From: Microcoleus sp.
GTDB taxonomy: Bacteria > Cyanobacteriota > Cyanobacteriia > Cyanobacteriales > Microcoleaceae
Reading direction: 5' to 3'
Assembly: GCA_042408215.1 (NCBI GenBank)
Contig: JAYFMW010000007.1
Span: 241,797 to 305,796, forward strand
Length of the DNA: 64,000 nt
A program made the translations under genes and the position numbers. Positions 7,065 to 25,074 of the stretch are shown piece after piece. A model generated the notes under the pieces. The model was not told the DNA's origin. It saw nothing but the letters and a program-made list of their open reading frames with translations, and did not search any database. Within the stretch, counting starts at the first letter, position 1, and every line of letters begins with the position of its first letter.

Positions 7065-7224
7065 ATTTCTCAGACAAAACTTCCCTAACCCTTTCCCTAA
7101 ACAAACGCACAGCCGCCCTTTGTCCGATCGCCTTACTTGGCTCTATCAAAGCGGGAATTTCGGCGATCGGCAAAAACGGAAAAGCCAAACTGTTCTCTCT
7201 CAGATCGTAATTCCCCTCTACCAA
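7065..7224 (-). pseudogene. C-terminal fragment of a Uma2-family endonuclease
   Basis: LVEGNYDLRENSLAFPFLPIAEIPALIE..GQRAAVRLFRERVREVL resembles cyanobacterial Uma2 C-termini; cut off at the 48-bp repeat. Confidence 0.65.
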
Positions 7225-7269
7225 TAGACATCTCCCAAAAAGAAATAGTTGACCGATCGCTATTAAGTT
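7222..7269 (+). repeat. 48-bp direct repeat, left copy (island boundary; resembles an IS terminal repeat)
   Basis: caatagacatctcccaaaaagaaatagttgaccgatcgctattaagtt is identical to 19463-19510. Confidence 0.9.
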
Positions 7270-7611
7270 CTAATGGAATTATAGTTGACTTTTCCTTCTT
7301 GACAGATGGGGATAATTGTGATTTATTAGATACAGCGAAAGCCGAGAGTCACGGCAAACGCATTGCAGATTCGTGGAATGATCCTATGGTAGGGGCGGTG
7401 GGTTTGGCTTGGTGAGCCAGCCCCCTGCCCCCACGCGCGGGGCTTTTGGAGCAACCACTTCTGGATTGCCCCTACAATATCATCCATTAATTGTGCAACG
7501 CCCAAACGCATACTCCTTTGGATGATTTCTTAACAAGAATTGATGGTTTTTAAATTTCGCCAGAGGTTATGAAAAAAACAAAAGTAGATAAAATTACTCA
7601 TCTAACTAGAA

Positions 7612-9801
7612 ATGGAAACCCAAATAAATTACTGGAAACAGCAATTACAAGAAGTTCCCGAATTATTACAATTACCCACAGATAGAACTCGCCCCAGCAT
7701 ACAAACCTATACAGGTAAAACACAAAGATTTACCTTAAATCAAGAATTAACCCAGAAATTACAAAAACTCTCCACCGAGTCTGGGACTACTTTATTTATA
7801 ACCACATTAGCGGCTTTCGCTACTTTACTATACCGTTACAGTGGGCAGTCAGACATTTTAATAGGTTCACCAGTAGCAAATTCTCAATACGAAGAAATAG
7901 AGTTATTTATTAATACATTAGTCTTAAGAAGTAATTTGGCAGATAATCCTAGTTTCTTAAACTTACTCAATCAGGTTAAAGAAACCACACTAAAAGCATA
8001 TAAAAATCAAGATATACCCTTTGAAAAGGTAGTGGAAGCATTACCAATTGAAGGATCTTTAAGTCATTCACCTATTTTCCAGGTGATGTTTGTCTTGGAG
8101 AATACCTCGATGAGTGAACTGGAATTACTAAGAAAAACTGGGAGTGAATCTAATCAAGATAACACAACGACTAAGTTAGATTTAACTGTCTCCATGACTG
8201 AAAATATCCAAGGTTTAGAGGGAGAATGGGAATATAATGCAGATTTATGGGATCGGTCAACTATTGAGCGGATGGTTACTCATTTTGAGAACTTATTATC
8301 AGCCATTGTTGCCGCTCCTGATCTGACTGTTAATGAATTACCCTTATTGAGCGAAACCGAACGCGATCAATTATTAGTAGAGTGGAATAATACCGAAACA
8401 GAATATCCTCAAGATAAATGTATTCATCAATTATTTGAAGAACAGGTAAAACTCACACCCAATGCCATAGCTGTAATATTTGAAGAACAACAATTAACCT
8501 ATTTAGAATTAAATCAAAAAGCCAATCAAGTCGCACATCATCTCCAAAGCTTAGGAGTAAAACCTGAATCATTAGTAGGTATTTGTGTAGAACGCTCCCT
8601 AGAGATGATAGTAGGATTATTAGGGATATTAAAAGCAGGAGGTGGTTATGTGCCCCTTGACCCAAATTATCCATCCGAAAGGTTGAGTTATATGTTGACG
8701 AATTCAAAGGTTGATGTGTTATTAACTCAACAGGAATTATTGTCATCTTTACCGTCATCTACTGCCAATCTAGTTTGTTTGGATAGAGATTGGACAACAA
8801 TTGAACAATATAGTCAGTCTAATCTTGAGACGGGGGTAGGTTCACAGAATTTAGCTTATGTAATTTATACTTCCGGTTCTACTGGACAGCCTAAAGGAGT
8901 GTCCATGAATCATCGTCCCCTTGTCAATCTTATACTTTGGCAAGTAAAACAATCATCTGCTAAATATGGCACAAAAACAGGGCAATTTACACCAATAAGT
9001 TTTGATGTGTCTTTTCAAGAAATCTTTGCTACTTTGTGTTCAGGTGGAATATTAGTTTTAATCAGAGAAGAAATACGCAGAGATGGGACAGCATTATTAA
9101 AAATGCTCACAGAAGAAGCCATCGAAAGACTATTTCTTCCCTTTGTTGCGCTAGAACAGTTAGCCCAGAGTGCGACAAATACTCAATTTCTCCCTCAAAA
9201 TCTTCAGGAATTAATTACGGCTGGAGAACAATTAAAAATTACTCCGACACTAATAGAATTTTTCAATAAACTTCCTAATTGTCAACTAGAAAATCAATAC
9301 GGACCCACAGAAAGTCATGTAGTCACAGCATTTTCTTTAAAAGGTTCTGCCAATATTTGGCCATCACTGCCACCCATAGGAAAGCCAATAGCCAACGCGA
9401 AAATATACATCCTAGATAAACAATTTCAACCAGTACCCATAGGAGTATCCGGTGAACTTTACATCGGAGGAGATGCAGTAGCTAGAGGTTATCTTAATCG
9501 CCCAGAATTAACCACTGAAAGATTCATTTCTAATCCTTTTGGTGGCGATCGCGAAGCGCTGATGCAAGCAGATCGCCTTTATAAAACAGGAGATTTAGCC
9601 CGCTATTTACCAGATGGTAATATAGAATATTTAGGACGAATAGATAATCAAGTCAAAATTAGAGGTTTCCGCATCGAACTAGGGGAAATAGAAGCAGTTA
9701 TTAACAACCATCCTCAAGTTCAACAGGCTGTAGTTATAGCCAGAGAAGATATTCCCGGAAACAAACGCTTAGTCGCTTATGTAGTTCCCAAACTCAAATA
9801 A
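7612..9801 (+). CDS. NRPS part 1: C-terminal half of a C domain plus adenylation domain (Pro-type code); probably continuous with the next two ORFs
   Basis: YVIYTSGSTGQPKG, FDVS, NQYGPTE, YKTGDL; no HHxxxDG; reading ends inside the A domain just before the embedded MT. Confidence 0.9.
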   Translation: METQINYWKQQLQEVPELLQLPTDRTRPSIQTYTGKTQRFTLNQELTQKLQKLSTESGTTLFITTLAAFATLLYRYSGQSDILIGSPVANSQYEEIELFINTLVLRSNLADNPSFLNLLNQVKETTLKAYKNQDIPFEKVVEALPIEGSLSHSPIFQVMFVLENTSMSELELLRKTGSESNQDNTTTKLDLTVSMTENIQGLEGEWEYNADLWDRSTIERMVTHFENLLSAIVAAPDLTVNELPLLSETERDQLLVEWNNTETEYPQDKCIHQLFEEQVKLTPNAIAVIFEEQQLTYLELNQKANQVAHHLQSLGVKPESLVGICVERSLEMIVGLLGILKAGGGYVPLDPNYPSERLSYMLTNSKVDVLLTQQELLSSLPSSTANLVCLDRDWTTIEQYSQSNLETGVGSQNLAYVIYTSGSTGQPKGVSMNHRPLVNLILWQVKQSSAKYGTKTGQFTPISFDVSFQEIFATLCSGGILVLIREEIRRDGTALLKMLTEEAIERLFLPFVALEQLAQSATNTQFLPQNLQELITAGEQLKITPTLIEFFNKLPNCQLENQYGPTESHVVTAFSLKGSANIWPSLPPIGKPIANAKIYILDKQFQPVPIGVSGELYIGGDAVARGYLNRPELTTERFISNPFGGDREALMQADRLYKTGDLARYLPDGNIEYLGRIDNQVKIRGFRIELGEIEAVINNHPQVQQAVVIAREDIPGNKRLVAYVVPKLK

Positions 9802-9827
9802 TAGTTTTACCTCAGATCAAGAACTCG

Positions 9828-10556
9828 ATGCTAGCACAAGTGGCACAGTGGCAGCAAATCTGGAATACAAACTATAGCCAAACCGCATCGGACTTTGATC
9901 CTACCTTCAATACTATAGGTTGGCGAGATAGTTATACAGGTCAAGCTATTCCTAAACAAGAAATGCGTCAATGGCTGGATACTACAGTAGAACGTATTCT
10001 TACCTGGAAACCAGACCGAGTTTTGGACATTGGTTGTGGAACGGGAATGCTTTTGTTTCAAATTGCGCCCAAGTGTTCTTATTATCTGGGGACTGATTTT
10101 TCTTCTCAGGTTTTGTCTTATGTAGAACAACAGTTAGAAAAGTTAGACGGAAATTGGTCACAAGTTTCTCTTTCCCAGAGAACAGCAGATAATTTTGAAG
10201 GCATTGAACCTGCTTCATTTGATACTGTAATTATCAATTCCGTAATCGAATTATTTCCTAGCATCAATTACTTAAGTGATGTTTTAAAAAAAGCGATCCA
10301 TGCGGTTAAAAAAGAAGGGATTATTTTTATAGGAGATATCCGTAATTTCTCTTTACTAGAAGCTTTCTATGCTAAACTTGAATTAGATAAAGCTTCAGAT
10401 TTGCTATCAACAAAAGAGTTACAGCCGTACATTTTTGATAGCATGGGTAAGGCGGATCAATTATTGCTAAGTCCAGATTTTTTCATAGCACTAAAGCAAC
10501 ATTTTCCTTCCATCAGTCATGTGCAAATTCAACTCAAGCGCGATCGTCTACCATAA
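9828..10556 (+). CDS. NRPS part 2: embedded SAM-dependent (N-)methyltransferase domain
   Basis: GWRDSYTG, VLDIGCGTG, NSVIELFP, FIGDIR; frameshifts at both ends. Confidence 0.85.
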   Translation: MLAQVAQWQQIWNTNYSQTASDFDPTFNTIGWRDSYTGQAIPKQEMRQWLDTTVERILTWKPDRVLDIGCGTGMLLFQIAPKCSYYLGTDFSSQVLSYVEQQLEKLDGNWSQVSLSQRTADNFEGIEPASFDTVIINSVIELFPSINYLSDVLKKAIHAVKKEGIIFIGDIRNFSLLEAFYAKLELDKASDLLSTKELQPYIFDSMGKADQLLLSPDFFIALKQHFPSISHVQIQLKRDRLP

Positions 10557-13500
10557 TGAGATATCGAAATTCCGCTATGATGTTATTCTTCATATAGAAA
10601 AACAGGTTTTTCCCACAGCAGAATTTCAGTGGTTAGACTGGCAAAAAAATGACCTAACTGTGTCAGCAGTCCGTGATTTACTTAAAGAAACAAAACCAGA
10701 ACTTTTAGGCATAAAGAATATACCTAACCCTCGTTTGAGTCAAGAAATCAAGCTTTTAGATTTATTGCATAGTGACACAGGATTAACTACAGTAGGTGAA
10801 TTACGATCGGCATTACAGGGTTGGGAAAATGATGGGATAGAACCTGAAGATTGGTGGGATTTAGGCACTGAGTTATCTCAGAATGTTTATATTAATTGGT
10901 CTGAGGTTAAGGGTTGCTATAATGTAGTTTTTCAATTAGGGGAAAAACTTTTCGACCATTCCCTAGGTAATATTCAGATTAAACCTTGGCTGAGTTATGG
11001 TAATAATCCTCTGCAAAGCAAAATAGTAGGTAATTTAGAACAAAAATTGCGGACTGATTTGAAAAAAAGTCTCCCTGACTATATGGTGCCCACAGCTTTT
11101 GTTATCCTCGATCAAATGCCACTAACACCAAGTGGTAAAGTGGATCGTCGTGGGCTAAAAGCTCCTGAAAAGTGCCGCCCTGAATTGTCAACAGTTCTGG
11201 TTATTCCCCGCACAGATAACGAAAAACTGATTGCTAATATTTGGCAGGAATTATTACAGATAGATTTAGTAGGAATACATGACAATTTCTTTGAGTTAGG
11301 TGGCCATTCTTTAGTAGCCACTCAATTAGCATCCAGACTAAGAGAAAATTTCCAAGTAGAAATACCCCTCAGAGTCATCTTTGAATCGCCAACAATAGCA
11401 GAATTAGATCAGGCATTAAGCCAATTACTGCTCCTCAAAAAAGGATTGAATATTCCCCCTCTAAAACCTGTTACACAAGATTTCGAGCAAATTCCCCTAT
11501 CTTTTCAACAAGAAAGACTGTGGTTTGTCGATCAATTAGAAGGAGCAAATGCTACTTATAATATACCAGTAGCCATCTCGTTAACTGGTAATTTGAAAAT
11601 TCATGTCCTCCAAAAAGCCTTGTCTGAAATAGTACAAAGACATGAGGTATTAAGAACTAGCTTCCCAACAGTTGACGGCACACCAAGACAGATAATCGAT
11701 CCAGAAGCTACCCTAAATATTAAGGTGACAGACTTACAGCATCTTGAAGAAACAGAACGCCAAACCGTATTAAAACAAGAACTACAACAACAAGCAAATA
11801 TTCCCTTTAATTTAGAAGAAGCCCCCTTAATCAGATGTAGTTTATGGCAGTTATCTCAAACCGAATATGTGTTATTAATAACAATGCACCATATTGTGTC
11901 AGATGGCTGGTCATTAGGAATATTGAATCAAGAAATTTCAACTTTATATAAAGCTTTTCTAGCAGGGAAATCATCACCTTTAGAAAAATTACCCGTGAAC
12001 TATGCAGATTTTTCTGTTTGGGAAAAACAATGGTTAAGGGGAGAAATATTAGAAACTCAACTCAATTACTGGAGACAACAATTGCAAAATGCTCCAGAAT
12101 TATTACAATTACCTACAGATCGCCCTAGACCCAATATACAGACTCACAAAGGGAAAACCCAAAGATTTCTCTTAAACACAGAGTTAACCCAAAAAATCCA
12201 GAATCTAGCCAATGAGTCAGGGAAAACTTTATTTATGACTTTGTGGGCAGCTTTTACCACATTACTATATCGTTACAGTGGACAATCAGATATTTTAATT
12301 GGGTCATCAATAGCTAATCGTAACCGCAGTGAAATCGAGTCATTGATAGGTTGTTTTGTGAATACTTTGGTCTTAAGAAGTAACTTTGAAGACAATCCTA
12401 GTTTCTTAGAATTACTCAACCAAGTTAAAGAAACTACACTTAAAGCTTATGAACATCAAGATGTACTCCTTGAACAAGTATTACCATCACATAGGTCTTT
12501 GAGTTATTCCTATCTATTCCAAGTAATGTTTATTCTCCAACCCCCAGTAGTAGAATTAGAACTACCAGGGATAATTTGTCATCAGTTATATCAAGAAAGC
12601 GCGGTCTCTAAGTTTGATTTAACAGTCTCAATAACGGAAACATTTCAAGGCTTAGAAGGCGAATGGGAATATAAGACAGATTTATGGGATGACTCAACTA
12701 TTAAGCGGATGGCTAGTCATTTTGAAAACTTATTATCAGCGATTGTTACTCATCCTTATAAGACTGTTAATGAGTTACAATTATTGAGCGAAACAGAACG
12801 CCATCAATTATTAGTAGAGTGGAATAATACCCAAACAGCATATCCCCAAGATAAATGTATTCATCAATTATTTGAAGAGCAGGTAAAACTCACACCCAAT
12901 GCGATCGCGGTAGTCTTTGAAGAACAACAATTAACCTATTTTGAGTTAAATCAAAAAGCCAATCAAGTAGCACGTCATCTCCAAAGCTTGGGAGTAAAAG
13001 CTGAATCCTTAGTAGGGATTTGTGTAGAACGTTCTCTTGAGATGGTAATTGGAGTGTTAGGGACATTAAAAGCGGGTGGTGCTTATGTGCCGCTTGACCC
13101 AAATTATCCAGCCGAAAGATTGAGTTATATGTTGACTAATTCAAGAGTTGATGTGTTATTAACTCAACAAGATTTATTGTCATCATTACCGTCAACACCT
13201 GCACAGATAGTTTGTTTGGATAAAGATTGGGGAGTGATTGAAAAATATAGTCATTCCCCACTTAATACAGATGTAAGTTCAAATAATCTTGCTTATGTCA
13301 TTTATACTTCAGGTTCTACTGGACAGCCTAAAGGGGTAATGATAGAACATCGGAGTTTAGTTAAAGCTTACTGGGGATGGGAAAAAGCTTATCAATTAAA
13401 ATCAACTACAACTTCCCACCTCCAACTTGCTAATTTTTCCTTTGATGTGTTTACTGGTGATTGGGTACGCGCTCTTTGTTCTGGAGCTAAACTTGTGTTA

Positions 13501-15408
13501 TGTTCATCGGAAATACGGACAGATCCGGCTCAACTTTACAGCTTAATGCGTTATCAAAAAGTGGATTTTGCTGAATTTGTCCCTGCTCTGATACGTCCTC
13601 TGGTTGAGTACCTTGAGCAAACTCAACACTTGCTTGATTTCATGCAAATACTAATAGTTGGTTCCGATATTTGGTATATGGGAGAATATCGAACTCTTGT
13701 AAATTATTGTGGTTCAGATAGTCGCGTCATTAATTCCTACGGAATAACAGAATGTACCATTGATAGCACCTTCTTTGAGGATGAGAAAAATAGTATCCCA
13801 GAGCAAGCCTTAGTTCCGATCGGTCGCCCTATGTCCAACACCAAAATATATATTCTTGATCGACAACTCCAACCAGTACCTATAGGTGTAATAGGCGAAC
13901 TCTATATCGGAGGTGATGGTTTAGCCAGAGGTTATCTTAACCGCCCAGAATTAACACAAGAGAAATTCATAGCTAATCCTTTCCAAACAGGAGAACGCAT
14001 TTATAAAACAGGCGACATTGCTCGTTACTTAAATGATGGTAATATAGAGTATCTCGATCGCATTGATAACCAAGTCAAGATTCGAGGCTTCCGCATTGAG
14101 CTAGGAGAAATAGAAGCAGTTATCAACACTCATCCTCAAATCCAACAAACTGTAGCGATCGCGAGGGAAGACATACCTGGAAACAAACGCCTAGTCGCCT
14201 ATATCGTGACGGAGGATGAATTATTAAATACTCATCAAGTACGAGAATATCTCAAACAGAAGTTACCAGAATATATGCTACCTTCTGCCTTTATGTTCTT
14301 AAAAAATCTCCCCTTAACACCCAACGGCAAAATAGACCGTAAAGCGTTACCTGCTCCTGATTTAGACTTAAGCACTCAAGGTGAATTAATTCTTCCCAGA
14401 GATACTATAGAATTGAAATTAGCACAAATATGGTCTGATTTGCTCGGCATCAATCCTATAGGAGTAACAAACAACTTCTTTGAATTAGGCGGACATTCTC
14501 TTCTGGCTGTCAGTCTCATGGCTCAAATTCAAAAACAATTCCACAAAAAATTATCTTTAGCAACACTTTTCCAAAATTCAACCATTGAACAAATCGCCCA
14601 TCTTCTGCGTTTAGAAACAGATGCTTTAGATTGGTCTGTTTTAGTACCCATCAAATCTAAGGGTAATAAACCTCCGCTATTTTGTATTCATCCATCTGGA
14701 GGAAATGTTCTCTGTTATCAAGATTTAGCCTATCAATTGGATTTAGATCAACCAGTCTATGGATTACAATCCTTTGGTTTAAATCCTGAAAACCAACCTC
14801 ATAGTAGTATTGAACAGATGGCTAGTTACTATATCCAAGCAATCCAAACTGTTCAAGCTCATGGGCCTTACTTGCTGATGGGTTGGTCTTTAGGTGGTAT
14901 AGTTGCTTTTGAAATGGCACAGCAACTTTCGCGCCAAGGAGAAAAAATTGCTTTCTTAGCTTCAATAGATACTAACCCTCTTTTCACCACATCTGAATTA
15001 GAAAATAATGATGCTGTTGTGATGGTGTGGATGCTTGGAGAAGCTCTTAAACCTTGTTTGGAGGAAATAAAACAACTAGAACCACAGGAACAATTAATCT
15101 ATGTGTTAGAACAAGCTAAACAAAAAAATCTGGTGTCAGAAGACGTTGATTTAACTCAAATTCAACATTTATTGGAGATTAACAAATTGAACATTCAAGC
15201 TCTAGAAAATTATCAACCTCAATCCTATTTAGGCTCGATGATTGTCATACAAGCTAGTGAAACTAATACTGATTTGACATCAGTCTGGAATGAATTTGTA
15301 GAAAAAGTAGATGCTTATATGATTCCGGGTAATCATTACAATCTGGTTACAACTCCACAAGTTCAAAGACTAGCTCAAATCATCCAAAAATATCTGGCTA
15401 GATTGTAG
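10519..15408 (+). CDS. NRPS part 3: end of MT/A, T, C, A (Orn-type code), T, thioesterase
   Basis: Two FFELGGHSL PCP motifs, HHIVSDG, A-domain core motifs, TE GWSLGG. Confidence 0.93.
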   Translation: MCKFNSSAIVYHNEISKFRYDVILHIEKQVFPTAEFQWLDWQKNDLTVSAVRDLLKETKPELLGIKNIPNPRLSQEIKLLDLLHSDTGLTTVGELRSALQGWENDGIEPEDWWDLGTELSQNVYINWSEVKGCYNVVFQLGEKLFDHSLGNIQIKPWLSYGNNPLQSKIVGNLEQKLRTDLKKSLPDYMVPTAFVILDQMPLTPSGKVDRRGLKAPEKCRPELSTVLVIPRTDNEKLIANIWQELLQIDLVGIHDNFFELGGHSLVATQLASRLRENFQVEIPLRVIFESPTIAELDQALSQLLLLKKGLNIPPLKPVTQDFEQIPLSFQQERLWFVDQLEGANATYNIPVAISLTGNLKIHVLQKALSEIVQRHEVLRTSFPTVDGTPRQIIDPEATLNIKVTDLQHLEETERQTVLKQELQQQANIPFNLEEAPLIRCSLWQLSQTEYVLLITMHHIVSDGWSLGILNQEISTLYKAFLAGKSSPLEKLPVNYADFSVWEKQWLRGEILETQLNYWRQQLQNAPELLQLPTDRPRPNIQTHKGKTQRFLLNTELTQKIQNLANESGKTLFMTLWAAFTTLLYRYSGQSDILIGSSIANRNRSEIESLIGCFVNTLVLRSNFEDNPSFLELLNQVKETTLKAYEHQDVLLEQVLPSHRSLSYSYLFQVMFILQPPVVELELPGIICHQLYQESAVSKFDLTVSITETFQGLEGEWEYKTDLWDDSTIKRMASHFENLLSAIVTHPYKTVNELQLLSETERHQLLVEWNNTQTAYPQDKCIHQLFEEQVKLTPNAIAVVFEEQQLTYFELNQKANQVARHLQSLGVKAESLVGICVERSLEMVIGVLGTLKAGGAYVPLDPNYPAERLSYMLTNSRVDVLLTQQDLLSSLPSTPAQIVCLDKDWGVIEKYSHSPLNTDVSSNNLAYVIYTSGSTGQPKGVMIEHRSLVKAYWGWEKAYQLKSTTTSHLQLANFSFDVFTGDWVRALCSGAKLVLCSSEIRTDPAQLYSLMRYQKVDFAEFVPALIRPLVEYLEQTQHLLDFMQILIVGSDIWYMGEYRTLVNYCGSDSRVINSYGITECTIDSTFFEDEKNSIPEQALVPIGRPMSNTKIYILDRQLQPVPIGVIGELYIGGDGLARGYLNRPELTQEKFIANPFQTGERIYKTGDIARYLNDGNIEYLDRIDNQVKIRGFRIELGEIEAVINTHPQIQQTVAIAREDIPGNKRLVAYIVTEDELLNTHQVREYLKQKLPEYMLPSAFMFLKNLPLTPNGKIDRKALPAPDLDLSTQGELILPRDTIELKLAQIWSDLLGINPIGVTNNFFELGGHSLLAVSLMAQIQKQFHKKLSLATLFQNSTIEQIAHLLRLETDALDWSVLVPIKSKGNKPPLFCIHPSGGNVLCYQDLAYQLDLDQPVYGLQSFGLNPENQPHSSIEQMASYYIQAIQTVQAHGPYLLMGWSLGGIVAFEMAQQLSRQGEKIAFLASIDTNPLFTTSELENNDAVVMVWMLGEALKPCLEEIKQLEPQEQLIYVLEQAKQKNLVSEDVDLTQIQHLLEINKLNIQALENYQPQSYLGSMIVIQASETNTDLTSVWNEFVEKVDAYMIPGNHYNLVTTPQVQRLAQIIQKYLARL

Positions 15409-15518
15409 GTTGGGTTGAGGAACGAAACCCAACATTATCAAGGATTTTGTGAGGCTTCTTATCAAGGATTTTGTTCTGATAAATACCATTTAATTTGGTA
15501 TTGTAAAAATGAAATCAA

Positions 15519-16190
15519 TTGCTCAAATCAGGAGAAAATATTATGTTAGAAAAAGATGGAATCGTTTATGAAATTCTACAAAGTCAAGATTTGTCCAGTA
15601 CAATTGAATGTTTAGCTACTGTTTTTCCTGGCAGTGAGCCACTTACCCATTGTTTAGGAATCACTAAAGAATACTATTATCCCGTAGCCGAAATTGTTTG
15701 TCACAAAGCGGTAGAAGATGGATTATCTCATATCGCTAAAGATGCACAAACAGGTGAAGTAGTCGGCTTTAGAATTTCTGAAGATTTGCATACAAGAGAA
15801 GATAAATCTTATCAAGATAAATTTAATGAATTTGAGAAATTTCTCCCCATTAGTTCTCTAGTAGAATCGCTACAAAGTCAGTATTTACAGGATAAAGTTC
15901 TCAGCAAAGGACAAATGTTATATCATTCCCTGTTAGGAGTAGATCCTAGATATCAGAATCGCCAGATCCCTAAATATTTATATGATGAAAATATAGATCA
16001 TGCTAAAAATCAAAATTTTTCCAGAATAATTACTGAAGCTACGGGCATGGTTTCACAAAGACTTTGTTCGAGATTCGGATTTAAGGAAATTTTGTCGATT
16101 AATTATCAAGATTATGAATATGAAGGAGTGAAAGTATTTGCTAACATCACTCGTCACAAAAAATGCGTGCTAATGGAGAAATTACTCTAG
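15519..16190 (+). CDS. GNAT-family N-acetyltransferase (start probably 15543)
   Basis: EPL motif, LLGVDPRYQNRQI acetyl-CoA loop, EATGMVSQRL..RFGF. Confidence 0.75.
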   Translation: MLKSGENIMLEKDGIVYEILQSQDLSSTIECLATVFPGSEPLTHCLGITKEYYYPVAEIVCHKAVEDGLSHIAKDAQTGEVVGFRISEDLHTREDKSYQDKFNEFEKFLPISSLVESLQSQYLQDKVLSKGQMLYHSLLGVDPRYQNRQIPKYLYDENIDHAKNQNFSRIITEATGMVSQRLCSRFGFKEILSINYQDYEYEGVKVFANITRHKKCVLMEKLL

Positions 16191-16208
16191 CCTGACACAA
16201 CGAGATTC

Positions 16209-16526
16209 TTAAGATAGCAAATTTACCCCCACGACTCCTAGAATAATCAAAAAAATTGAAACAATTTGTAGAGGGTTTAAAGTTTCTTTAAAAAAAATAA
16301 CCCCTACTATTGCAATTATCGTGGTTCCCAATCCTGACCAGATTGCATAAGCAATATTTAGATTAATTCCTTTAAGAGCCTTTGTCAACATGGAGATGCT
16401 ACCAATGTAGCATATCACCACTAAAGTAGAAGGAATTAATTGAGTAAATCCCTGGGAAAACTTCATACAAGTTGTTCCCAGTGATTCTAATAAAATAGCA
16501 ATGAATAAATCCAGCCAACTTGTCAT
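16209..16526 (-). CDS. SMR-family small multidrug efflux transporter (EmrE/QacE-like)
   Basis: 105 aa, 4 TM helices, membrane Glu in ILLESLGT, AYAIWSGLG. Confidence 0.9.
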   Translation of the reverse strand: MTSWLDLFIAILLESLGTTCMKFSQGFTQLIPSTLVVICYIGSISMLTKALKGINLNIAYAIWSGLGTTIIAIVGVIFFKETLNPLQIVSIFLIILGVVGVNLLS

Positions 16527-16548
16527 AATCTAACTCTTTCTACAATCA

Positions 16549-17913
16549 TTAATGGGCGGGTTTTATAGGTTCAATTAGTTCCAAACGAGAAGGGAGATAT
16601 TCTCTTCTCTCTATATCACTCAAATCTTCAGCCGCACGAATTAATTCTACATCTCCTGTTTCTGTAATCAACACAATATTAGGACGATATTCGATAAACT
16701 GAAACCAAAAACTATTATTATAGGCACCAATATTAGAGATGACCAAGCGATCGCCTCGTGATAAAGGTGGTAAGCTAATTGCTTCCGCTATCACATCTAT
16801 ATTCGTACAAAGAGGTCCATAAAGTTGGGAAGTTTCACACTTACCAGGAATAGCCTTTGCTAGGGAAATATTAAACTGAAACCAAAGACCAAGAAATAGT
16901 AAGTTAATCCCAGCATCAATAACATAACCAGGATTTCCATCAGGTAAGCGTTTTGTCCCACAAACGGTAGTAATTAAAGTTCCTGCTTCATCTACCAGCA
17001 ATCGTCCTGATTCAATAATTAATTTAGGTCTATGGTTGGGTCTAAGACTTTTCAAGAGAGCATTACAGATAGTCTCCGCATAGTCATCAATAGAAGGAGA
17101 TATTAACTCACCTGTATGATAAATTTCCTTCATTTTGTTGTTAGATGCAAATCCACCACCAATATCTATATACTCCATAGACCAGCCAAAATGATCTTCT
17201 ATCTCATAGCCAAATTTGACCATTTTTTCTACTTGTTGAGCGTAGGCTTCTTTATTGGTTATGAAAGTACCAATATGGCTATGTAATCCATTGAGACGTA
17301 ACCGATTACTTTTCGCAATATGTTGTACTGCTTCCATCGCTTCACCAGATTCTAGGTTAAAACCAAATCTTGACCAACAAGGTTCTATACCTGTATCTAA
17401 GTTAATACGAATACCAACAGTCAGGGTTTTGTCTAAGATTGAGGCAATTTTTTCTAAATCTTCAATTTCCTCGAAGCGATCAATATTGACTGTTACCCCA
17501 TCTTTGATAGCCGCGAATAAAGTATTAAATGGTTTATGGGGTCCGTTGAAAATGATTTCTTGACCAGGAATACCTAAATTTTTAGCTTTATCGTATTCCA
17601 TTTGGGAAACTAATTCAGCAACGGCTCCTTCTTGATGGAAAATAGCACAAATTGCTTTTAAATAATTAGTCTTATAAGACCAACCAAAAGTTACGTCTGG
17701 ATAACGATTAGTAAAAGCATTTTTGACACGACGAAACTGCTTTCTTAATGTCTCTTCTGAGTAAACAAATAAAGGAGAACCAAACTGGGCGACTAAATCC
17801 TCAACACTAACTCCAGATATTTCTGTTTTAATTGTCTGATTTAGGGGATTTACTTGAGTCAATTCATTTATTGGACTATTTTGCAACTCACCAATTGTAG
17901 GTTTTTCTGACAT
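16549..17913 (-). CDS. PLP-dependent fold-III decarboxylase (LysA/diaminopimelate decarboxylase-like)
   Basis: SYKTN PLP lysine, HSHIGT, IDIGGGF, IESGR, GPLC, GAY. Confidence 0.85.
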   Translation of the reverse strand: MSEKPTIGELQNSPINELTQVNPLNQTIKTEISGVSVEDLVAQFGSPLFVYSEETLRKQFRRVKNAFTNRYPDVTFGWSYKTNYLKAICAIFHQEGAVAELVSQMEYDKAKNLGIPGQEIIFNGPHKPFNTLFAAIKDGVTVNIDRFEEIEDLEKIASILDKTLTVGIRINLDTGIEPCWSRFGFNLESGEAMEAVQHIAKSNRLRLNGLHSHIGTFITNKEAYAQQVEKMVKFGYEIEDHFGWSMEYIDIGGGFASNNKMKEIYHTGELISPSIDDYAETICNALLKSLRPNHRPKLIIESGRLLVDEAGTLITTVCGTKRLPDGNPGYVIDAGINLLFLGLWFQFNISLAKAIPGKCETSQLYGPLCTNIDVIAEAISLPPLSRGDRLVISNIGAYNNSFWFQFIEYRPNIVLITETGDVELIRAAEDLSDIERREYLPSRLELIEPIKPAH

Positions 17914-18007
17914 TTTAATTGCCTCCTAAAGTAACTATGGTATGTAAATGTGTGGAATCAGTCAATATCTTTGCCCCAAAAATAAAGAGAAAGAATAATC
18001 TCATCCT

Positions 18008-18601
18008 TCAGCTTTTTTGATAATAGATATTAATACTTGATTCTAGTTTTTCTCTTCCGTCCGCAACTGCTGTCACCTGCTCTTTGTACTTCTCATCGAT
18101 CAGATATTTTAAAGGTTGTTCAACTTGATTAAAATAACGCATTGCTTCAGCCGCTTTTTCATCCCATTCTGCATATAAGTTTAAGATATCATCGGGCATT
18201 ATTTTAGTGCGAAGTCCTTCGGCATCGTTTCGTAGGCATTCAAAAGGTTCATCCAAATTTAAAGTTCCATAATCAATTGTTATTTCTTCTCCCGGATAAA
18301 TATCTCTAACTGCTATTTCAAAATCATAAGCAGTAGTAATACAGTTAGGATTAGAAGAATGATTGAGAAAACGTCCTAGATCCCATACTAATGCTAGTTT
18401 ACCAGTTCTATATCGATAACAGTATTTAAGCACTTCTTTTTTGGTGAATTCATCGAGGGAATTTACATAGGATTCATCTAGTTTTTGAGTAAGGTCATCT
18501 AAAATCCAAACTATTGTTCCTTTTGGAATCAATTTAGTGGCTATTAAACCATAACCGATCGTTTCGTTAATCTTGCTCATTTGGGTGTCAGGATGTATCA
18601 T
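18008..18601 (-). CDS. SET-domain protein (putative lysine methyltransferase)
   Basis: GYGLIAT..IPKG, RFLNHSSNPN, GEEITIDY. Confidence 0.88.
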   Translation of the reverse strand: MIHPDTQMSKINETIGYGLIATKLIPKGTIVWILDDLTQKLDESYVNSLDEFTKKEVLKYCYRYRTGKLALVWDLGRFLNHSSNPNCITTAYDFEIAVRDIYPGEEITIDYGTLNLDEPFECLRNDAEGLRTKIMPDDILNLYAEWDEKAAEAMRYFNQVEQPLKYLIDEKYKEQVTAVADGREKLESSINIYYQKS

Positions 18602-18807
18602 AAGAGAAATGGGTTTGAAACCCCGTCCGAGAAGGACGGCTTTATATTGGATTTAGATATCATATCACTATAGGCATTACGGCATGACTTCAGCAGTAAA
18701 ACAGCCTACCCTACACCCAGGCACAAACCAGCCCCCCAGTTTGCGCCTGGGTTAAAAGTTGGGGTATTGAGGGTTAAGGTGTTACGCTCCGGCTCCACCA
18801 ATGTCAA
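18602..18807 (+). mobile_element. ORF-less IS200/IS605-derived miniature element
   Basis: Left-end hairpin gggtttgaaaccccgtcc-gagaa-ggacgg after TCAT; internal hairpin cccaggcacaaac/gtttgcgcctggg; ends in tgtcaa (right-end hairpin degenerate). Confidence 0.65.
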
Positions 18808-18958
18808 TCTCTTCCTCAAGTCCTGATACGGGTATTTTTTTATACCTTATATCTCGTTTCTCTGCGTATATTCCGCAAAAAACTCGGCTAAACACTTTAC
18901 TCCCATGTATAAAAAAATACTTTAGTTATTCCAAAGCCAAACTGGGTTAAGCCAAACT

Positions 18959-19220
18959 GTAGGGACACTCCAGCGTGCCCCTAGGTCTCAACTTAAGCCT
19001 AAAACCCTTGATAAATCTGGTTTTTAGGCGACTGCGAGATCCCCCTAAATCCCCCTTAAGAAGGGGGACTTTGATCGGAATCTTGTCCCACACCCCCTAC
19101 TCCCCTACTCCCCTGGTTGTCGGGGGGCTAGGGGGGATCTGGACCCAATCGTCAAACAACACTCTCTGACTGGGTTTGACGTTAAGTTGACAGGAAGAAG
19201 GGCACTTGGAGTGTCCCTAC
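18959..19220. repeat. Nested composite repeat (outer GTAGGGACAC/GTGTCCCTAC, inner TCAACTTAA/TTAAGTTGAC, central CCCCCTTAAGAAGGGGG)
   Basis: Homologous copy at 57421-57657. Confidence 0.75.
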
Positions 19221-19283
19221 TACAGGATGTGTCGCCAACGCGATCTGTTTAGCCTGAAGCCGCGTAGCAACGCGGGCTTTTTT

Positions 19284-19462
19284 TCAATTGGGAATTTTGT
19301 GATAATTCTGTAAGTCCCTGTCGAGTGACCAGATAAAAACTTCACTCATGGGGAAGCGTTTACACGATTTATTAAATTCTTTAATGATACTGAGATCGCC
19401 GAAACTTGTTCCTTCTTGCCGATCGGGAGCTTTGTTTTTGCCAGCTAAATCTGGGAACCGAT
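19284..19462 (-). pseudogene. C-terminal fragment of a hypothetical (possibly PIN-like) protein
   Basis: IDRFPDLAG...SFGDLSIIKEF...FIWSLD; truncated at the 48-bp repeat. Confidence 0.45.
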
Positions 19463-19510
19463 CAATAGACATCTCCCAAAAAGAAATAGTTGACCGATCG
19501 CTATTAAGTT
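19463..19510 (+). repeat. 48-bp direct repeat, right copy
   Basis: Identical to 7222-7269. Confidence 0.9.
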
Positions 19511-19718
19511 ATAATAGTTCTAGCATGACTTTAGGTCTTTGATGTTTAGGTAATGGCATTCGGATTTCTAAAACTCCTTCAGCATAAGCAATTCTCCACG
19601 CTCTACCGTCGCCGACATCAGACATTATCGCTTTAAATGTTTGCCATTTAATGCCAGCCAAATTAATTAATTTTTCCTCGGTACTTGGTTGAGTTGGAGT
19701 CAATGTTGTTGTGACCAT
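19509..19718 (-). pseudogene. N-terminal fragment of a Uma2-family endonuclease
   Basis: IKWQTFKAIM...RIAYAEGVLEIRMPLPKH is a typical Uma2 N-terminus; stops at the repeat. Confidence 0.75.
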
Positions 19719-23400: not shown

Positions 23401-24195
23401 ATGTTTCTATTTTTGTCGAAGCTGCTGCCGCTGTTTATTTATCCTTTGGGCTTGAGTTGCTTGTTAATGGTGGCGGCCTTAATCACAGTGTGGAAGCGTC
23501 CTCAATGGGTGGCGCTGCCAATTGCTACTGCTCTAATTATTTTACTGTTAGGCAGTAGCGGTTGGGTGTCAAAATCCTTAGTCCGATCGCTCGAATGGCA
23601 AAATCTACCGCCCGCTCAATTCCCCGAAGCTGAAGCTATTATCGTCTTGGGCGGTGGTGTCAAATCAGCTTTGCCTCCCCGAAGTTGGGTAGAATTAGGG
23701 GAAGCGGGCGATCGCATTATCTATGCTTCCCGACTGTATCGTCAAGGCAAAGCTCCCCTGCTCATTCTCAGCGGCGGTAGAGTAGACTGGAGAGGTGGTG
23801 GCACTCCCGAATCAGCAGACATGGCAGAAATTGCCCAAACTGTCGGCGTACCTGCATCAGCAATTCTCCAAGATCCCGATTCAAACAACACCTATCAAAA
23901 TGCCGTCAATGTGCGGAAAATCCTAGATGCTAAAAATATAAAAGGGCCTGTATTGCTAGTAACATCGGCGATGCACATGACTCGATCGCTCTTAATCTTC
24001 CAGCGTCAGGGAATCAAAGCAATTGCCGCCCCCACAGACTTTCAGATCACCCAACAGGATATCGCAGCATCCCAAAGCAATTGGCAAGCAGCAGCCCTAG
24101 ATTTTTTGCCGGATACCTATCAGTTAAACCAGTCAACCAAAGCCTTAAAAGAATACATCGGCTTAATCGTATATCGCCTGCGGGGATGGCTTTAA
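23401..24195 (+). CDS. YdcF/DUF218 family protein
   Basis: IIVLGGG, LILSGG, NTYQNA, LLVTSAMHM, KEYIG. Confidence 0.9.
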   Translation: MFLFLSKLLPLFIYPLGLSCLLMVAALITVWKRPQWVALPIATALIILLLGSSGWVSKSLVRSLEWQNLPPAQFPEAEAIIVLGGGVKSALPPRSWVELGEAGDRIIYASRLYRQGKAPLLILSGGRVDWRGGGTPESADMAEIAQTVGVPASAILQDPDSNNTYQNAVNVRKILDAKNIKGPVLLVTSAMHMTRSLLIFQRQGIKAIAAPTDFQITQQDIAASQSNWQAAALDFLPDTYQLNQSTKALKEYIGLIVYRLRGWL

Positions 24196-24213
24196 ATTAA
24201 CGGCTTATAACTA

Positions 24214-24975
24214 ATGAATGCTCATGTTTTTGATTGGGAAATACCCCCAAATGACCTAATATTTAATAGCGATGAAGTTCATGTTTGGCGCGTCGATCTG
24301 TCGATGACAGCATCTTGCCTGCAAAGCTTGCAGGAGACTCTCTATACTGATGAACTCAAAAGAGCAGAGCGTTTTTACTTTCAGAATGACAGAGCGCATT
24401 TTATCGCAGCTCGCGGTGTTCTCAGGACAATTTTGGGACGCTATCTAAATAGAAATCCTGACGAACTGCGGTTTAGCTACAACCACTACGGAAAACCATC
24501 TTTAGTTACCGCAGGCTCTGAAGATAAACTTTGCTTCAATTTGTCTCACTCTTACGGAATTGCTCTCATCGGTGTTACGCAAAATCGAGAAGTCGGCATT
24601 GATATTGAACGCATTCGTAAAGATTTTTCCTACCAGCAGATAGCCGAAAGTTTTTTTTCGCCTTTTGAAAATGCCGTATTGCGATCGCTCCCCGTGCATC
24701 TCCAAGAAAAGGCTTTTTTCACCGGCTGGACTCGCAAAGAAGCCTATATCAAAGCAGTCGGGAAAGGACTTTCTATTCCGCTTAATAAGTTTGATGTCAC
24801 CCTGGCTCCAGGAGAACCAGCAGCGCTATTAAACTTTCAAGAAAACCCCCAAGAAGTATCCAGGTGGACTCTGATTGAATTAATCCCTGGTTCAGATATG
24901 GTAGCAACTCTTGCCGTTGAGGGCGATCGCTGCAAAGTTCTCTGCTGGCAATTCTTGAAGAGAGGGGGAAAGTAG
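24214..24975 (+). CDS. Sfp/HetI-type 4'-phosphopantetheinyl transferase
   Basis: GKP, FNLSHS, VGIDIE, WTRKEAYIKA. Confidence 0.93.
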   Translation: MNAHVFDWEIPPNDLIFNSDEVHVWRVDLSMTASCLQSLQETLYTDELKRAERFYFQNDRAHFIAARGVLRTILGRYLNRNPDELRFSYNHYGKPSLVTAGSEDKLCFNLSHSYGIALIGVTQNREVGIDIERIRKDFSYQQIAESFFSPFENAVLRSLPVHLQEKAFFTGWTRKEAYIKAVGKGLSIPLNKFDVTLAPGEPAALLNFQENPQEVSRWTLIELIPGSDMVATLAVEGDRCKVLCWQFLKRGGK

Positions 24976-25074
24976 GAGACACACAGTTAAATTAATCCGT
25001 GTATCCCAGTCAAAATCCCTGTGTTATATTAAACTAATTACAGCCAATATTTGCCCTAGTCGCCCCAAACAATT

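Follow-up and report, generated by a model that had tools for sequence, protein, structure and literature searches.

A rare, mobile NRPS gene cluster in Microcoleus and its unusual tailoring genes

Introduction

What might a two-module nonribosomal peptide synthetase (NRPS) make in the company of a GNAT-fold protein, an SMR transporter, a fold-III pyridoxal phosphate (PLP) decarboxylase and a stand-alone SET-domain methyltransferase, and do these five genes belong together at all? The question is raised by positions 7569-18601 of a 64,000-nt stretch of a Microcoleus sp. genome (the window, whose positions serve as coordinates throughout). An earlier sequence-only reading answered it with a small methylated Pro-Orn/Lys-type dipeptide. 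The locus is an orphan NRPS cluster, rare and mobile, that combines tailoring genes in an unusual way; every part comes from a known family. Its genes are inherited together and lie on an acquired island. For its chemistry a different order of events is tentatively favored, with a probability of about 0.3, in which the NRPS would couple N-methylproline to the side chain of a basic amino acid, a decarboxylase resembling FigC would then act on the product, SET and GNAT would tailor it, and the SMR pump would export it.

A cluster of five co-inherited genes

The listing of open reading frames (ORFs) and Pfam matches put all five genes at the places and on the strands that the sequence-only reading had assigned. 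On the plus strand the NRPS, in three ORFs (7612-9801, 9828-10556 and 10519-15408), is followed by the GNAT gene (start at 15519 or 15543, end at 16190). Facing them on the minus strand are the genes for the SMR (EmrE/Qac-like) transporter (16209-16526), the decarboxylase (16549-17913), which is FigC/FslC-like and not LysA, and the SET methyltransferase (18008-18601). A scan of the cluster for promoters and terminators gave matches no better than chance.

That these genes form a single cluster, as had been claimed, is borne out by two other genomes in which the decarboxylase, SET and SMR genes again occur with the NRPS. In L004, a metagenome-assembled genome (MAG) of the Microcoleaceae, an intact 2590-aa NRPS has GNAT, SMR and decarboxylase downstream, and SET has moved upstream. 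In L005, a Nostocaceae MAG, the order is SET-decarboxylase-SMR, then GNAT and NRPS diverging, so that with the window the five genes are found together in three gene orders. L004 and L005 are the two loci confirmed from 79 pattern matches in 185,579 species genomes, in a scan that reaches close relatives only. Cluster proteins of two Microcoleus MAGs also carry consecutive accessions (MGB8690923/24/27 and MGB7710571/73/75), and two contigs of 29,740 and 31,851 nt in the ENA database, judged from equal nucleotide size, would each hold NRPS, GNAT, SMR, decarboxylase and SET. The five genes stay under purifying selection, with dN/dS of 0.08-0.56 in all 22 gene or domain comparisons.

In contigs long enough to judge, no island-type decarboxylase, SET or GNAT was found apart from the NRPS. 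GNAT matches occurred in 6 of 400 genomes of the order and in 10 of 389 genomes of the family of L005; none of the 20 non-island GNAT loci inspected (5 more were left uninspected) had a fold-III enzyme or SET gene, and one had an unrelated NRPS 6 kb away. A metagenome scan with the GNAT alignment returned 11 loci, all distant and none of them the island, and a search of plasmids for the decarboxylase at 1e-60 gave no match.

Acquisition and mobility of the island

The AT-richness that had been noticed by eye was confirmed: GC content of the block is 0.363 versus 0.451 for the 7.36-Mb genome, and not one of 1294 genome tiles of 11 kb lies at or below 0.37. A Microcoleus-like host is probable from proteins named Microcoleus sp. 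that are 96-98% identical. In the sister genome G008 (97% identical, 83% complete) both flanks are joined by 285 nt and the host gene is whole. In the window, these 285 nt are replaced by 7229-19512, and the host gene, presumably of Uma2 type from its appearance, is split into a 3' part (7075-7228, minus strand) and a 5' part (19513-19718, minus strand). A 53-nt direct repeat stands at the island edges (7222-7274 and 19463-19515, 98% identical) and resembles a fragment of a PIN toxin gene. A contig from sequencing run X2 joins 7221 to 19463, that is, it skips the island between the repeats, and loss of the island by this path can occur. Integration at an att site was considered and rejected, because the repeat is part of the insert and is absent from the empty site of the sister. 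No mobility gene (integrase or transposase) was found among the island ORFs, which in this respect do not resemble an integrative element.

The decarboxylase was found in none of 78 other genomes of the genus and had matches in 4 of 143 genomes of the family, of which a single one reaches the island level (89%). Copies in another genus and in another family differ by synonymous distances of only 0.05-0.79, and values this low point to horizontal transfer. The five-gene block is an acquired, horizontally moved island. At its right end (19295-19457) lies what remains of a small gene, with 81% identity to an ORF of contig C3, and an intergenic element at 18930-19230 is highly repeated, with hundreds of matches across the genome.

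Specificity of the NRPS

The synthetase is bimodular, of the form A-T / C-A-T-TE, with its catalytic motifs present. The first ORF encodes the C-terminal half of a condensation (C) domain without HHxxxDG, followed by adenylation (A) domain A1. The second encodes an embedded methyltransferase (MT) dependent on S-adenosylmethionine and probably acting on nitrogen. The third holds the end of the MT and A1, followed by thiolation (T) domain T1 (11227-11406), C2 with HHIVSDG (11488-12813), A2 (12871-14331), T2 (14404-14607) and a thioesterase (TE) with GWSLGG (14671-15390), all on the plus strand. The A-domain codes were re-derived by a motif script, with the register of A1 verified against GrsB1 and TycB1, and those read by eye were reproduced: DVQFIAQVVK for A1 and DVGEIGSIDK for A2.

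The A1 pocket has by far its best match in the Pro domains GrsB1 and TycB1, and DVQFIAHVXK is listed as Pro in PMC2866473; A1 is classed as Pro-type. The code DVQFIAQVVK itself occurs widely in cyanobacteria, in 25 domains from a set of 118 proteins, and opens an NRPS of Planktothrix agardhii. With the next two codes of that NRPS it would match the Pro-Gln-Thr order in oscillapeptilide 97, whose structure is given in the supplement to PMC10608790; the link between this NRPS and oscillapeptilide 97, with the Gln and Thr code readings, is proposed here. HHxxxDG is missing from the half-C domain in all three copies checked. An N-methylated Pro has no free NH to which an acyl chain could be attached, so module 1 has to act as a starter, a role that the noncatalytic half-C fits. 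Together with the embedded MT, the pocket nearest to GrsB1 and TycB1 supports the Pro-type starter with N-methylation that had been suggested. A missing upstream module was rejected, as five full-length copies of 2590-2594 aa (P0022, P0023, P0139, P0140 and P0438) start at the same half-C.

The A2 code DVGEIGSIDK is given as an Orn signature in PMC3992020. In the genome of L005 (contig L075) and in Planktothricoides sp. SR001 the A2 pocket is swapped to DAEDIGTVDK, and C2, T2 and TE remain 83-100% identical. The swapped pocket is more acidic and is closest to A1 of ApnA, an Arg- and Tyr-activating domain, and from this likeness it is tentatively assigned as Lys/Arg-type. Both versions of A2 would then accept a basic residue, in agreement with the basic second residue of the sequence-only reading. 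No paper that maps DAEDIG to a substrate was found in the literature searchable in full text, the cyanochelin B paper and its supplement hold no link from code to residue, and the A2 pocket had no close solved relative in the Protein Data Bank. A second NRPS locus of the form C-A-T-TE, with a code read as DAQTLGVVDK, lies at G000:C17:120742-125002 behind sequence resembling a polyketide synthase (PKS), and is apparently split across frames in this assembly.

The decarboxylase

A LysA-like decarboxylase making the basic residue was part of the sequence-only reading, and this part is not supported. The LysA model TIGR01048 scores 232 bits against a cut-off of 297.9, although lysA is the top NCBIfam match; the Arg that binds diaminopimelate (DAP) and the acid after the catalytic Cys are both absent; and the genome has its own LysA, on contig C5, whose CESGD and RPITY correspond to CTNID and LFLGLWF of the island protein. 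The best solved match is the N-citrylornithine decarboxylase FigC/FslC (E 2.8e-54, versus 2.8e-41 for the best DAP decarboxylase), and the FslC/FigC model NF041039 gave 223 bits against a cut-off of 500. According to PMC7857480, the free side-chain amine or DAP is bound in ODC, ADC and DAPDC (the ornithine, arginine and DAP decarboxylases) by an acidic residue that follows the catalytic Cys and by an Asp or Arg of the specificity helix, residues that are lost in FigC. The island enzyme has the same trait, with no acid after the catalytic Cys and no Asp or Arg on the specificity helix. The citrate-binding H357 and R387 of FigC are not kept (Ile and Phe are at the aligned positions), and there is no linked NRPS-independent siderophore (NIS) synthetase.

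The nearest relatives of the decarboxylase are 66-68% identical and, in 3 of 4 loci inspected, belong to a cassette with PqqD, an ATP-grasp ligase and a urea-transporter-M23 gene. This cassette, present at L003, L068 and L069 and, in addition to the island, in the genome of L004, represents the likely donor family of the island decarboxylase. At predicted pocket positions, the changes from the cassette relatives are T to L, Y to F, M to T, Q to F and M to F. The same decarboxylase accompanies the Orn-type and the Lys/Arg-type copies of the NRPS.

PLP decarboxylases require a free alpha-amine, and A domains require a carboxylate. A decarboxylated amine could therefore not be loaded by an A domain, and the decarboxylase more likely acts after ligation. 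The need for a free alpha-amine further means that the NRPS product could be its substrate only with a side-chain amide; the enzyme either takes a side-chain-linked product or makes a separate amine.

GNAT, SET and SMR proteins

By sequence, the GNAT protein matches insect arylalkylamine N-acetyltransferases (AANATs), polyamine N-acetyltransferases and the C-terminal domain (CTD) of Ebony, with the fold and the E-P-L motif of this group; its model (pLDDT 88) has the C-terminal condensation domain of Ebony as top fold match (TM 0.84). It is a separate gene and the TE is intact, which is not the A-T-CTD arrangement of Ebony itself. The AANAT/Ebony type opens a possible role in product release that the sequence-only reading had not considered.

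Related proteins were seen in other settings. An Ebony-like A-T-AANAT protein is encoded at L111:3612-6218 (G000:C14:99612-102218), with relatives at L113-L120; open frames of 817-855 aa occur in 7 of 143 family genomes and a fragment in 1 more. Its gene directly precedes panD in all 8 loci, with an MFS pump in at least 4 of them, and the protein probably serves as a bacterial beta-alanyl-amine synthase. Of this protein, only the T-AANAT part is left in the present genome, where it follows genes recognized by eye as those of alkane synthesis. Fold-I PLP decarboxylases lie beside distant AANAT-type GNATs in 6 of the 20 non-island loci (L040, L041, L047, L048, L052 and L053; checked with Pfam in 3, and several of them close kin), a pairing that may possibly represent a pathway to an amine plus its N-acetylamine, and a protein of 387-398 aa in their neighborhood has no Pfam match.

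The SET protein keeps the GxG, NH and Tyr motifs and has the fold of SET-domain lysine methyltransferases; a search of the ESM Atlas with it returned generic SET clusters only. Tandem pairs of SET genes were seen in high-GC genomes of the phylum sample (L021, L022 and L023), two of them near acyl-CoA ligase genes. The SMR protein scores above the cut-off of PF00893 and has Glu14, and no cut-off of a named subfamily is reached.

A proposed pathway and its alternatives

Ligation followed by decarboxylation is preferred because it gives each of the five genes a role and accounts for the FigC-like pocket. The NRPS is predicted to load Pro and N-methylate it as the starter; C2 would join N-methyl-Pro to the side-chain amine of Orn (or of Lys in the swapped variant), and the TE would release the product. 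Loss of its carboxyl group through the FigC-like enzyme would then yield N-methylprolyl-putrescine or -cadaverine, the freed amine would be methylated by SET or acetylated by GNAT, and the resulting cation would leave the cell through the SMR pump. We infer every chemical step of this route, above all the side-chain coupling by C2, the small-molecule substrate of SET and the product. Also in favor of this route are the ATP-grasp ligase adjoining the genes of the nearest decarboxylase relatives and the fold-I decarboxylases next to distant GNAT relatives. A more elaborate version, which is improbable, has the aminobutyl tail of the acyl-polyamine mimic a Lys side chain and become trimethylated by SET, so that mat-forming freshwater cyanobacteria would export an N-methylpyrrolidine/quaternary-ammonium bis-cation (m/z 242.223) with its chain length set by the natural A-domain swap.

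Several observations weigh against this route. C2 looks like an ordinary condensation domain, with no sign of side-chain selectivity, and if the swapped pocket takes Arg, side-chain coupling would be impossible in that variant. The likeness to FigC argues just against a free-amine substrate and not for the proposed one. The fold matches of the SET model (pLDDT 96) are all protein-lysine methyltransferases, and SET matches in 6 of 400 phylum genomes included five that were inspected, none with partner genes. The decarboxylase, SET and SMR of SR001 were not seen in 90% clusters. In addition, the NRPS is broken in L005, where about 107 nt are inserted into A1 and the half-C domain is interrupted, and a broken natural lineage (P0029, P0136 and P0137) begins inside the MT.

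Were the amide instead alpha-linked, an N-methyl-Pro-Orn/Lys/Arg thioester might be capped as by Ebony, with SET and decarboxylase making a separate (methylated) diamine onto which the GNAT-fold protein releases the peptide in trans. The Ebony fold match, the fusion of this family as A-T-AANAT beside panD in relatives, the operon that SET, decarboxylase and SMR have to themselves, and the aromatic residues gained at the predicted decarboxylase pocket, which could hold a methylammonium, are all in its favor. However, purifying selection (dN/dS 0.24-0.30) acts on a TE that is intact, the island GNAT is only 25-29% identical to T-fused domains versus 47-60% to other, unfused cyanobacterial GNATs, and true acetyltransferases score about equally in the fold search; such capping is unlikely. 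The product of the sequence-only reading, an alpha-linked N-methyl-Pro-Orn/Lys (acid or lactam) with its side chain tailored by SET and GNAT, would call for standard C-domain chemistry and for a SET enzyme acting, as SET does, on Lys side chains in peptides. It would also make the decarboxylase an extra LysA, for which the top NCBIfam match speaks but the score below cut-off, the absent DAP determinants, the LysA on C5 and the pairing with both types of A2 do not, and it is quite doubtful.

The five genes might also be two linked but separate units, in which NRPS and GNAT make and detoxify a dipeptide and SET, decarboxylase and SMR do other work, SET for example on a protein. The opposed transcription units would fit this, as would SET relatives that stand alone, the cultured SR001, which shows NRPS and GNAT only (on one contig), and a metagenome contig with SMR and mere fragments of GNAT and decarboxylase. 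Yet the five genes are still together in L004, where SET is found, in the same orientation, on the side of the NRPS, and the island-type parts are not seen off the NRPS in contigs long enough to judge, which makes separate units a rather improbable account. Pro loading as for anatoxin was considered and dropped, as there is no PKS, oxidase or stand-alone carrier.

State of the NRPS in this strain

The three ORFs of the NRPS reflect frame breaks near 9793-9834 and 10547, all of them single extra bases inside 760 nt. Contigs from four runs of four studies cover the MT region. All four lack one base near 9793, at least two lack the base near 9834 and at least one that near 10547, and gap counts of the remaining run contigs fit loss of these same bases (9834 and 10547). 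The frameshifts are absent from the nearest run, X1, which across 8,163 nt in other parts of the cluster has 25 substitutions and not a single gap; a local assembly or consensus error is therefore favored. An upstream ATG with an RBS-like AGAGG (7569-7611, plus strand) is likewise out of frame with the ORF at 7612 in this assembly; it is in frame in L005, and at least runs X4 and X7 carry insertions that would restore the frame.

The sequence-only reading had allowed that confirmed frameshifts and no expression would mean a dead cluster. For the family this does not hold, given the intact copies. For this strain, true inactivation of the NRPS in an otherwise functional family is a serious possibility, if a minority one, and it concerns the state of this copy, apart from the mechanisms above. 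Among 61 genes compared, the assembly has only 2 other broken ones; frameshift errors do not therefore pervade the genome, and the lesion could be real. Real breaks occur in other lineages, and the island can disappear from between its repeats. Against inactivation stand the close spacing of the three extra bases and their absence from X1. Two RNA runs, X18 and X19, share just 0.08-0.09 of the words.

Outside the island, 5.6 kb away, a gene for a phosphopantetheinyl transferase of the HetI/Sfp type lies at 24214-24975 on the plus strand. It is absent at the same place in the relatives L107 and L108, whose match skips 24195-25020.

Significance and comparison with known systems

As the sequence-only reading had supposed, no description of the cluster as a characterized one was found in the searchable papers, which omit most subscription journals and bioRxiv supplements. 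The available portions of PMC5460452, PMC9146292, PMC8546630, PMC10587159, PMC12628792 and PMC7291377 do not describe it, and those of the genome and metabolomics papers on SR001 mention neither the NRPS of the cluster nor a matching compound. The locus offers a compact orphan pathway in which an A domain has been swapped in nature, and at least its NRPS and GNAT are carried by a cultured strain, SR001. Three unassigned enzyme groups would gain their first substrate: the widespread family of FigC-like decarboxylases, bacterial stand-alone SET proteins and cyanobacterial GNATs of the AANAT/Ebony type; and if the proposed route is true, a SET domain would act on a small-molecule natural product. 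Small polar cations easily escape routine cyanopeptide screens, and benthic mats may release an overlooked class of metabolites.

Among known systems, the N-methyl-proline and pipecolate starters of celesticetin, lincomycin and tubulysin likewise begin a chain with an N-methylated cyclic imino acid, with other partners and enzymes. The CTD of Ebony, insect AANATs and agmatine/polyamine N-acetyltransferases share the fold and E-P-L motif of the island GNAT, which stands alone behind a TE-terminated bacterial NRPS. In place of the ligase, chaperone and channel of the PqqD/ATP-grasp cassette, the island has NRPS, GNAT, SET and SMR around a related decarboxylase. The rhizoferrin route of Francisella, FslA/FslC (FigA/FigC), treated with SbnH and AcsE in PMC7857480, provides the best solved match of the decarboxylase and the same lack of an acid after the catalytic Cys, and the proposed order, in which the Orn side chain would be acylated before decarboxylation, resembles it; the island differs in having an NRPS and not an NIS synthetase, in lacking H357/R387 and iron-uptake genes, and in its SET, GNAT and SMR. 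The glidonins (PMC10587159) would share with the product proposed here a peptide ending in a diamine, but they are 12-mers with putrescine added beyond the assembly line, whereas the island pairs a two-module NRPS that has an Orn/Lys A domain with its own dedicated decarboxylase.

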